Source: Minisyncoccota bacterium
Lineage (GTDB): Bacteria > Patescibacteriota > Minisyncoccia > Phycocordibacterales > UBA6065
Length of the DNA: 43,617 nucleotides
Assembly: GCA_041661645.1 (NCBI GenBank)
Contig: JBAZUA010000001.1
Span: 1 to 43,617 of the forward strand
Direction: 5' to 3'
Below, piece by piece: positions 2,377 to 5,072 of this stretch (its first letter is position 1; every line of letters begins with the position of its first letter). The notes beneath the pieces are model-generated. The model was not told where the DNA came from and searched no databases. It was given only the letters and a program-made list of their open reading frames with translations. The translations under genes were made by a program, and so were the position numbers.

Positions 2377-2582
2377 AGTCCCGGAGCCCGAAAGGGCCCT
2401 GCCGCGAGGCATATTTCACCCCTGGGCCTATCTTGTGAGCATCGTACGCCTTCTGACGATTTTACTTTTAGTTTAATCTCACAGGCGTATAATGCCATTA
2501 GTAACTCCCTGAAAAGGGTTGTCTGCGAGCGATCGCCGGCGTTCAAAGTTACGGCACGGGCCCGGGGGTGAAATACCGGGCT
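2377..2582 (+). ncRNA. Candidate ~205-nt multibranched structured 5' leader or RNA upstream of integrase 2
   Basis: Nested stems 2377-2384/2576-2582, GCCC-GAAA-GGGC, 2411-2428/2559-2575 (~17 bp), 2432-2439/2478-2485, and a possible pseudoknot 2445-2451/2483-2489. Confidence 0.5.
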
Positions 2583-2591
2583 TTGTGTTAT

Positions 2592-3764
2592 ATGTTCATA
2601 AAGTTTCAAGAAAAGTACGAGGAATATTTCGAGTATCTGAGGAAGAGCGGAAAGACAGACAAGACGATCAGCGAGCACAGGAGGATGCTATGCGACCATT
2701 TCCCGGAGCGCATCAAGACGATGCGCCTTGCCAAGATGTCTAAATCAGACATCGCAGATCTGCTCGAGGCGGGAAGGCAGCATGGCGCCCATGGGCCGAC
2801 GCGACTCATCGTCGTGCTGAGGCGGTATTTCAACTTCATGCAGTCCGAGCTCGGCATGGAGATGCCCTTCGACTGGCGGGATGTCAGAGTCCCGATGTCG
2901 AAGCACAAGGAGCAGCCGGTATTCGAGGACCAGGAGATAGCCCTGCTCTTCAAGACCATGGAGGACCTCGAGCCCGGGAGCGTTCATGGCAAGCGGATGA
3001 ACTGGACGATGAGCACTCTCTTCGAGACGCTGTTCGCCACCGGCATGCGTATCCACGAGCCGCTCATGCTGAAGAGGTCGCAATTCCCGCAGATCAAGGC
3101 ATCGAAGGAGCTAGTGATCCTGGGCAAGGGAAGCAAGGAGCGAAAGATATTCTTCACCGATCGGGCGATTGAGAAGCTCGAGGAATACCTCGGCCGGAGG
3201 AATGACACGAGCGACTCCCTCTTCGTAAACTCCTGCGGGGAGCCCTTAATAATGGCGACGGCCCGAAGCTATTTCGAGCGCTTCAAGCGAAAGCTCCGCG
3301 AGCTCGGGCACGAGGAGATAGCACGGAAGCTGAAGAGCCATACGTTCAGGCGCACGCTATCGACGCACCTCTTCGAGAACGGTGCCGACATCAAGACCGT
3401 GCAGAAGATCCTCGGTCATGAGTCCGAGCGCACGACGATCAAGTGCTATATCCGGGCGAACGAGAAGAGGGCGAAGGTGATCCATACCGCCATCCTATCT
3501 AAGATACCTTTCGAGAAGCTCGCTACTCGGTACAAGGAAGTCCCCGACGGATCGGTTCACGTCCGCATCACGGAGAATGGCGGCCGGTGGATGCCGATGG
3601 ACGAGCAGGCATCAGAGGAGCTCAAGGGAATGGTGTCGATGATGAGGGATCAGTTCGCATCGCCGGACGAGAAGCGAATCCTGCAGAAGCTATTTAGCTC
3701 TCTCGGTCAGATATTGGAGCCAGTGACGCCTGTGAATCTCGAGCTTGAGAATGTTGGCGGGTAA
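2592..3764 (+). CDS. Tyrosine recombinase/integrase with a C-terminal extension
   Basis: Motifs TGMRIHE, GKGSKER, HTFRR and LGHESERTTIKCY. ATG 2592 is preferred over GTG 2568, which lies inside the RNA stem. Confidence 0.93.
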   Translation: MFIKFQEKYEEYFEYLRKSGKTDKTISEHRRMLCDHFPERIKTMRLAKMSKSDIADLLEAGRQHGAHGPTRLIVVLRRYFNFMQSELGMEMPFDWRDVRVPMSKHKEQPVFEDQEIALLFKTMEDLEPGSVHGKRMNWTMSTLFETLFATGMRIHEPLMLKRSQFPQIKASKELVILGKGSKERKIFFTDRAIEKLEEYLGRRNDTSDSLFVNSCGEPLIMATARSYFERFKRKLRELGHEEIARKLKSHTFRRTLSTHLFENGADIKTVQKILGHESERTTIKCYIRANEKRAKVIHTAILSKIPFEKLATRYKEVPDGSVHVRITENGGRWMPMDEQASEELKGMVSMMRDQFASPDEKRILQKLFSSLGQILEPVTPVNLELENVGG

Positions 3765-3984
3765 TGATAAAATCTATGCATGAAAGGGCCGAAGCCAAAC
3801 ATAAAAAAAGACCTCGAGATCCTCGCGCTCAAAGCGCAGGGCCTTAGCTTTAGAGCCATCGCTAAGAAGAAAAATCGCGACGTGAAGCGCGTGTATGTGG
3901 CGTACCAGAGGGCAAGGACGCTAGTGGGTGTTGGCGGGTTATCCACAGTTAAGTAACAAGTGGGGCTTTGACGTGTTGGCGGGT
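3752..3984 (+). repeat. Three exact copies of TGTTGGCGGGT (3752-3762, 3929-3939, 3974-3984); DnaA-box TTATCCACA at 3939-3947
   Basis: Read directly from the sequence. Confidence 0.9.
3780..3956 (+). CDS. Small basic HTH DNA-binding protein (58 aa; candidate excisionase or regulator), absent from the supplied ORF track
   Basis: MKGPKPNIKKDLEILALKAQGLSFRAIAKKKNRDVKRVYVAYQRARTLVGVGGLSTVK. The GLSFRAIA...VKRVY segment fits an HTH pattern. Confidence 0.7.
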   Translation: MKGPKPNIKKDLEILALKAQGLSFRAIAKKKNRDVKRVYVAYQRARTLVGVGGLSTVK

Positions 3985-3995
3985 AGAGATATACT
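3968..3995 (+). promoter_or_regulatory. Sigma70-type promoter with a TGTTGGCGGGT repeat in its spacer
   Basis: TTGACG-N16-TATACT. Confidence 0.7.
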
Positions 3996-4001
3996 TATAA
4001 C

Positions 4002-4158
4002 GTTCCTCGAAAATATCATACAGATCGTGGACGAGTTCCGAGATGATTTTGTGTGATGTTTCGATTTTTATGCAGTACTATTTCGGATCAAAGAAGGGCG
4101 GAGACGCACTTCAGTGGTCTAAGAGATAGTTTCAAAAGAGCCCGAAAGGGCTCTTTTG
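4002..4158 (+). ncRNA. Candidate ~155-nt ncRNA of unknown family
   Basis: Promoter upstream, hairpin 4007-4064 and hairpin 4077-4130 (GAGA tetraloop, G-U pairs), then a terminator. No convincing ORF inside. Confidence 0.6.
4133..4158. terminator. Bidirectional intrinsic terminator
   Basis: CAAAAGAGCCC-GAAA-GGGCTCTTTTG. Confidence 0.85.
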
Positions 4159-4236
4159 TTATGGGACCACCGTTTATTTTTATTTACTTCAGGAACAGCT
4201 TTTTGTCGGTGTAAATCGCTTGGCAAACAAAAGCCC

Positions 4237-4452
4237 CTAATTTGGGGCCTGGGGACCTGATTCACCTAGCAGGGAGTGGCTAATCGCCAGTGCGGACAGT
4301 GCAAGAAAAAAAGACATGAAGTGCACATGAGGGTTGATGGACTGAATGAGGGTGCGATATTTTTCGATGAGCAGGAGAGGGTTCAGGTCTGTGCTTATGA
4401 ATAGTATGGCAAGGCCATACGCCGCAAGATAGTAGGCAATTCTCGTTTTCAT
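4237..4452 (-). CDS. Small two-TM membrane protein
   Basis: Two hydrophobic stretches. Start taken at MKTRIAYY. Confidence 0.5.
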   Translation of the reverse strand: MKTRIAYYLAAYGLAILFISTDLNPLLLIEKYRTLIQSINPHVHFMSFFLALSALAISHSLLGESGPQAPN

Positions 4453-4547
4453 AGTGGAAGGGTGCCGATTCATTTGATATAGTGCTCTTCTGCATTCAAG
4501 ATGTCAAACGCCAAATCGTACTTTGAATGGTAAGATAACATACACAT

Positions 4548-5072
4548 ATGAACGAAAACGAAATAAAAGATACCGAAAAAACCGAGGTGGCGGCACCTAT
4601 CGCCCCTGAAATTTCAGAATTGGACAAGGTTAGGGCCGAGCGCGACGAATACCTCGCTGGCTGGCAACGCGCCAAGGCTGATTTTGCCAATGCCAAGAAG
4701 CGCGCCGACGAGTCTCTCGTCGAATACCGCAAGCTCGCCACCGAGGGGGTCATCGAGGAGATCATACCTGTGCTCCAGAGCTTCGAGATGGCATTCGCCA
4801 ACAAGGAGTCGTGGGAAAAGGCAGACAAGAACTGGAGGGCCGGCGTCGAATACATACATGGCCAGCTTAAATCGGTTCTCGAGCAGAATGGCCTCAAGGA
4901 GGTGAACCCGCTTGGCGAGGAGTTCAACCCAAATCGCGACGAGGCCATCGAGTTCGTGCCGGTCACGGACGTCTCTCAGGGCAATAAAATCGTGGGCGTG
5001 GTCTCAAAGGGATATAGCCTCAACGGCAAAGACATCCGTGCCGCAAAGGTGAAGGTGGGGGAGGTGAAGTAA
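4548..5072 (+). CDS. grpE: Nucleotide exchange factor GrpE
   Basis: RAKADFANAKKR, FNPNRDEAI and KGYSLNGKDIRAAKVKV motifs; lies upstream of dnaK. Confidence 0.96.
   Translation: MNENEIKDTEKTEVAAPIAPEISELDKVRAERDEYLAGWQRAKADFANAKKRADESLVEYRKLATEGVIEEIIPVLQSFEMAFANKESWEKADKNWRAGVEYIHGQLKSVLEQNGLKEVNPLGEEFNPNRDEAIEFVPVTDVSQGNKIVGVVSKGYSLNGKDIRAAKVKVGEVK

Follow-up and report, generated by a model that had tools for sequence, protein, structure and literature searches.

A putative RNA gene beside a tyrosine integrase is very probably the attR junction of a prophage-like element inserted in the 3' end of rpsI

The integrase and the region downstream of it

The window analysed here, the whole of a 43,617-nt stretch of DNA that is found in groundwater metagenomes, encodes a tyrosine integrase of 398 amino acids (2568-3764, plus strand; PF00589, E = 2.7e-29; PHROG integrase, E = 2e-40). 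Its gene is transcribed towards a short region in which an initial annotation had seen a stand-alone RNA gene of about 155 nt with its own promoter and terminator. Beyond that region lie a 78-aa minus-strand ORF and then host grpE (4548-5072, plus strand; Pfam GrpE), with which grpE-dnaK-dnaJ begins. Upstream of the integrase, at 508-1326, another and unrelated tyrosine recombinase of 272 aa is encoded; it is bracketed by 27-nt inverted repeats (350-376 and 1260-1286, 85% complementary) and comes right after a tail-fibre-like C-terminal ORF (36-299; PHROG tail fiber, E = 1.2e-5). The region from 350 to 1286 could be an invertible segment that switches tail-fibre ends, or a separate small element.

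The integrase gene is followed by one for a small helix-turn-helix (HTH) protein of 58 aa (3780-3956, plus strand), which has weak matches to HTH_38 and Sigma70_r4_2 that are below the Pfam cut-offs. A comparable small HTH ORF occupies the same place in locus L045, and a larger one is found in L022; the 58-aa protein is a candidate regulator or excision factor. We considered TTATCCACA, which follows the integrase, as a DnaA box and rejected it, as it codes for G-L-S-T, a conserved ending of the small HTH protein. A repeat search found three exact direct copies of TGTTGGCGGGT (repeat family D3) on the plus strand, at 3752-3762, 3929-3939 and 3974-3984. These are the only exact copies in the 43.6 kb and all lie within 233 nt; when one mismatch is allowed there are 4 matches in the 43.6 kb against 0.53 expected. 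The first copy overlaps codons for the integrase's C-terminus and the second those for the C-terminus of the HTH protein; two copies sit in promoter-like spacers, one before the HTH gene (3745-3773) and one at 3968-3995. The repeats may serve the integrase or the HTH protein as arm-type or operator sites.

The second of these spacers belongs to a sigma-70-like promoter that was detected by a promoter scan on the plus strand at 3968-3995 (TTGACG-16-TATACT, 10 of 12 positions matched). When the plus strand of 4000-4165 is folded it forms two hairpins and a terminator hairpin with an energy of -64.2 kcal/mol (z = -7.08), a value equalled by 0 of 200 dinucleotide shuffles; the minus strand folds more weakly (-42.5 kcal/mol, z = -4.6). 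Hairpin 1 (about 4005-4064, plus strand; z = -3.26) would form the 5' end of the predicted transcript. Hairpin 2 (4077-4130, plus strand) has a GAGA loop and reaches z = -6.15 when folded alone. The third hairpin, with its stem at 4133-4158 followed by UUGUU, is not in the list produced by the terminator scan; we call it a terminator because of its fold and its identity with the terminator of a homologous rpsI gene that is described below. The promoter, the two hairpins, the terminator and the internal ORF of the initial annotation are therefore all present where it placed them.

It was right, too, in seeing no tRNA or tmRNA signature here: ARAGORN returned 0 tRNA and 0 tmRNA genes for the whole window. 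The region matched no known family among the Rfam covariance models at gathering score, and in a permissive Rfam scan the best match was a rimP leader (E = 0.18) that covered the terminator only. A search of phage DNA with the region gave chance stretches of 24-29 nt only. The nearby grpE gene prompted a search for a CIRCE operator, and no match was found even with up to 3 mismatches.

The conserved motif and the codons of rpsI

We retrieved the loci of integrase homologues with 57-60% identity and compared them downstream of the integrase. On the same strand and 3' of nearly all of these genes there is a promoter, one or two copies of CARTGGNNNAARNGNTAR with a period of 55 nt, and a terminator. 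The motif resembles the end of rpsI and follows homologous integrases in nine or more lineages. Read in frame, it gives Gln-Trp-Ser-Lys-Arg-stop (QWSKR-stop) at every integrase-linked locus, and its variation is entirely synonymous: Ser AGU/UCN, Arg AGA/CGN, Lys AAG/AAA, Gln CAG/CAA and stop UAA/UAG. In the window the motif ends a block at 4082-4129 (plus strand) that makes up most of hairpin 2 and duplicates, in degenerate form, the final 15 codons of rpsI, the gene for ribosomal protein uS9. It reads FGSKKGGDALQWSKR-stop and aligns codon for codon with uS9 ends, of which a genuine example is ...KFGLKKARKSPQWSKR-stop; its last 6 codons are conserved across all loci. The block has thus been kept as codons because it derives from rpsI. 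Two RNA motif types, GGAGU and GGUCN, that appeared to covary with their partner strands have a simpler explanation in the two serine codon families, and we discarded them.

The promoter has the form TTGAC[AG]-N16-18-TANNNT and lies 100-165 nt (given also as about 120-165 nt) 5' of the first unit in 12 of the 14 integrase-linked loci, which represent about nine independent lineages; the same pattern is absent before genuine rpsI ends. Tandem pseudo-units of the rpsI end are spaced exactly 55 nt apart in L005 (6274/6329), L008 (1901/1956), L010 (6262/6317), L022 (7309/7364) and L025 (314/369). An in-frame UGA is seen at the same pseudo-unit position in two AT-rich loci (the sites listed are L013 ~2042, L021 ~6979 and L010 ~6238), and could mean either that untranslated copies are decaying or that the hosts use UGA as a sense codon. 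Very long inverted repeats, with stems of ~30 bp and loops of 45-65 nt, follow the last unit in L005 (6341-6470) and L010 (6325-6425); their left arm starts inside the last codons of the pseudo-unit and they are far longer than an ordinary terminator. In L021-L024 and the P0003 contig a minus-strand RadC-family gene lies immediately 5' of the homologous integrase, and genes for a RepO-like protein and a DNA methyltransferase come after the att region.

Scanning IMG/VR with a degenerate pattern, we found L025, in which the motif is joined to a real rpsI gene. Positions 2-331 of L025 encode uS9 (Ribosomal_S9, PF00380, E = 1.3e-30), matched to the last position of the profile, and the protein ends in ...RKFGLKKARKSPQWSKR-stop, given also as ...ERRKFGLKKARKSPQWSKR-stop. 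Only 4 nt after rpsI there is a second 55-nt unit (KLGLKKARRALQWSKR-stop), and then a terminator. An IMG/VR scan for A-x3-PQWSKR-stop gave 39 loci, among which only L025, L045, L053, L056, L059 and L063, and possibly L039, are relevant. Dozens of others, within L026-L063, belong to marine groups in which ...DPQWSKR-stop is found antisense inside a conserved 543-aa ORF (for example at 6680-6712 in L028) and has nothing to do with rpsI or integration. These antisense matches in marine contigs are a caution for searches that are based on patterns.

The element arm, the host flank and the empty site

Relatives of the window's GrpE with 79-87% identity, the named ones of which are labelled Paceibacterota or Taylorbacteria, reveal the order of genes before insertion. 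On the contigs that encode them, rpsM-rpsK-rpsD-rpoA-rplQ-rplM-rpsI stands immediately before grpE, which is followed by two small ORFs, dnaK and dnaJ, and the uninserted order rplQ-rplM-rpsI-grpE-dnaK-dnaJ is seen in L064-L067. The rpsI gene of L064 ends in CAGTGGTCAAAGCGATAG followed by TTTCAAAAGAGCCCGAAAGGGCTCTTTTGTT, and from the stop codon on it is identical to window positions 4127-4160 (plus strand; TAGTTTCAAAAGAGCCCGAAAGGGCTCTTTTGTT). The stop codon and intrinsic terminator in the window therefore belong to host rpsI. The claim of a stand-alone RNA gene with its own promoter and terminator fails on this point: the promoter is the element's and the terminator is the host's. The grpE gene is also found 3' of the motif in L010/L011 and in L021, as is expected if those hosts share the rpsI-grpE order. 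The contig of an independent assembly (L002) starts at window position 4173, 13 nt past the rpsI terminator. The gap between rpsI and grpE (4161-4547 in the window, 5213-6000 in L064) holds the 78-aa minus-strand ORF in the window, a 201-aa plus-strand ORF in L064 and nothing in L065 and L067; this intergenic spot is variable for reasons that are separate from the element.

The other side of the junction belongs to the element. L004 carries the same element (integrase 94% identical, DNA 97.7% identical) with a different flank; its element copy is matched by the window on the left of CAGTGGTC, and the two diverge after CAGTGGTC. A variant in run X3 diverges from the window right after GAGATAA, and L005, L006 and L019 share their sequence up to the stop codon of the second unit and then differ. 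Window positions 4112-4128 (plus strand) hold CAGTGGTCTAAGAGATA, a block of identity shared with the rpsI end in L025, which is CAGTGGTCTAAGAGATAA. Crossover probably takes place within this block or just 5' of it. The integrase gene ends 350 nt from this att core.

We looked for rpsI in the window and in the integrase loci and it is absent from both; attL and the left end of the element lie outside the window. Contigs from the window's own sample, X1, were compared with L025 in a search for an attL-type junction. One of them ends inside rpsI and holds its 5' part (depth 9.8); another runs from the rpsI end through a second unit like that of L025 into small ORFs and element genes, with 95% identity to L025 (depth 11.8). 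The window's contig has a depth of 10.5 in X1, and run X3, which has the diverged attR variant, holds L025 exactly. With attL outside the window, the pair of direct repeats is drawn from other contigs of the same sample and not from one molecule. In sequence and in depth, the L025-like junction in X1 would fit an attL of this element. TGTTGGCGGGT was looked for on the attL side in L025 and was not found. There is one unit at attR in the window and there are two at attL in L025, which fits an attP with two units, one of them recombining.

With an element arm, a shared core and a host flank, the region reads as an attR. The homology to rpsI, the empty site that relatives show, a terminator of host origin and the repeated occurrence with this integrase family all emerge directly from these comparisons. 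We consider it very probable that at 3968-4160 a prophage-like integrative element, inserted in the 3' end of rpsI, has its attR, and that what looked like an RNA gene is a chimera made up of element and host DNA. Two features, a tail-fibre-like ORF at 36-299 and the membership of L025 in IMG/VR, suggest that the element is a prophage. The initial annotation had assigned the region either to the integrase module or to the host RNA used as the insertion target; it was right to link it to that module and to the insertion target, as it is the attachment junction, but the target is the 3' end of rpsI and not an RNA gene.

According to the mechanism that we propose, the integrase would recombine the element into the last codons of host rpsI. 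The element would carry, beside the integrase, an outward promoter, a 5' stem-loop and the degenerate copy of the rpsI 3' end, and recombination within or next to CAGTGGTC (TAAGAGATA) would join this arm to the last rpsI codons of the host, with their stop codon and terminator. On this reading the element supplied the promoter and hairpin 1 together with the 5' half of hairpin 2, and the host supplied the last codons and the terminator. An intact rpsI that ends in sequence supplied by the element and is followed by the second pseudo-unit is expected beyond the window, where the element has its other end. The attL would thus consist of rpsI, unit 2, the element's terminator and its left end, the attR would be window 3968-4160, and the circular attP would be the window up to ...CTTCAGTGG joined to a unit 2 of the L025 type.

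The att-spanning transcript and comparison with known systems

The element-borne promoter at 3968-3995 faces outwards across the att core. Its firing would produce a transcript of ~155 nt that spans att, and the TGTTGGCGGGT repeats and the HTH protein may control it. A junction and nothing more gives no account of a promoter that is conserved before the att core in nine or more lineages, and the two tandem 55-nt units of some elements also count against it. Moreover, the contrast between hairpin 2 (z = -6.15) and genuine rpsI ends (z about 0) raises the possibility that the element's copy is shaped for structure. According to a rival proposal the region is, besides being attR, a functional small RNA of the element. 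Such an RNA spans the att core, so its 3' part would differ with the state of integration, which it could report or control along the lines of lambda sib retroregulation or of circularisation-dependent expression. We regard this as unlikely, and give slightly less weight still to its more specific form, in which promoter, 5' stem-loop, rpsI-end mimic and terminator make up a small RNA that is a read-out of the integrated versus the excised state or a mimic of the 3' end of rpsI mRNA.

The case for the small RNA begins with the outward promoter, conserved in 12 of the 14 integrase-linked loci, and with a terminator that always follows the unit or units, including in attP-like loci before RepO-like and methyltransferase genes; together they make a short att-spanning transcript plausible. 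G-U-rich stems favour the plus strand as RNA, the X3 variant has one compensatory change from A-U to G-C in hairpin 1 (4031/4037), and hairpin 2 in the window and unit 2 of L025 (z = -3.98) are unusually stable. Against it stands the comparison among homologues. When the pairing scheme of hairpin 2 was imposed on 15 further units from elements and on 6 genuine rpsI ends, 24-71% of positions could pair, as against 14-57% in slid controls. Most element units fold like shuffles, with only the window's unit and L025 unit 2 standing out, and genuine rpsI ends are not more stable than their shuffles (z from -0.8 to +0.5). Many of the 5' regions also fold like shuffles: of 10 loci, 4 have a significant 5' hairpin (the window, L005, L014 and L021) and six do not. 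The structure of hairpin 2 is therefore lineage-specific and is not conserved across the family, and structure that is kept across homologues, the mark of a new structured non-coding RNA, was not found. The conservation of sequence is fully explained by its origin in rpsI, and the region is contained in no RNA-seq run.

Translation of the internal ORF is a much less probable source of function. It would start at ATG 4043 (28 codons, 4043-4129, plus strand) or at ATG 4070 (19 codons) and yield a peptide ending in QWSKR, such as a leader or arrest peptide. Both ATGs are in frame in the window and the frame ends in a motif that is conserved at the level of amino acids. However, the X3 variant turns ATG 4070 into ATA and has a 1-nt insertion after 4076 that puts ATG 4043 out of frame with QWSKR-stop, so start and frame are not conserved; most homologous units are without a canonical start codon, and in several of them a stop lies in frame only a few codons further upstream. 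A Shine-Dalgarno sequence cannot be seen, and the peptide is simply the tail of uS9. The initial annotation had named translation of this ORF, should it explain the conservation, as grounds for giving up the RNA. This applies in modified form: the block is conserved as codons, with QWSKR-stop subject only to synonymous variation, but the local ORF is probably not expressed.

That the target was a host non-coding RNA gene, tmRNA-like or other, is scarcely credible: integrases often lie beside tRNA and tmRNA genes and the start-less frame looks superficially like a tmRNA tag, but ARAGORN and Rfam find no such gene, the empty site in relatives is rpsI with no RNA gene, and in unrelated hosts the integrase is likewise accompanied by the promoter and hairpin 1. 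The tmRNA-like reading of the start-less frame was dropped once that frame was recognised as the uS9 tail.

An attR in the 3' end of rpsI has precedents. ICEs (integrative and conjugative elements) and IMEs (integrative mobilisable elements) with tyrosine integrases are documented in the rpsI 3' end in Streptococcus, for example IMESag-rpsI (PMC4701971; PMC5704250). They share with the present element a site-specific tyrosine integrase, the rpsI 3' end as target and an element-borne copy of the gene end, through which the essential gene stays intact; here, in contrast, the host is a groundwater CPR bacterium that resembles Paceibacterota and the element is prophage-like. Islands and prophages at the 3' ends of tRNA and tmRNA genes likewise have an attP that carries a replacement copy of the gene's 3' end, an integrase at one junction and the host terminator beyond the duplicate. 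The target of the present element differs from theirs in being protein-coding, and as a result the repeat evolves like codons and not like an RNA stem. The three TGTTGGCGGGT copies recall a lambda-type attP with arm-type sites, as they are short repeats on the integrase side within 360 nt of the core, although their arm-type role is only a candidate one. As in lambda sib retroregulation, a hairpin straddles the presumed crossover point, so that its make-up would depend on the state of integration; unlike lambda, there is a separate promoter between the integrase gene and the core. Insertion of this kind is known; the present case adds another host group and a prophage-like element, and the region belongs to no Rfam family.

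The identification of the junction removes a false positive: the region would otherwise have been catalogued as a novel non-coding RNA, and its striking fold score is misleading. It also provides a diagnostic that can be applied elsewhere, in that a conserved 'RNA motif' beside an integrase that varies only at synonymous positions is probably a second copy of the end of a protein-coding target gene. The targeting of the rpsI 3' end, described before in streptococcal ICEs and IMEs, is now seen in prophage-like elements of CPR bacteria, on contigs from several metagenomes. That these elements keep a promoter pointing across their own attachment site is a point worth an experiment.
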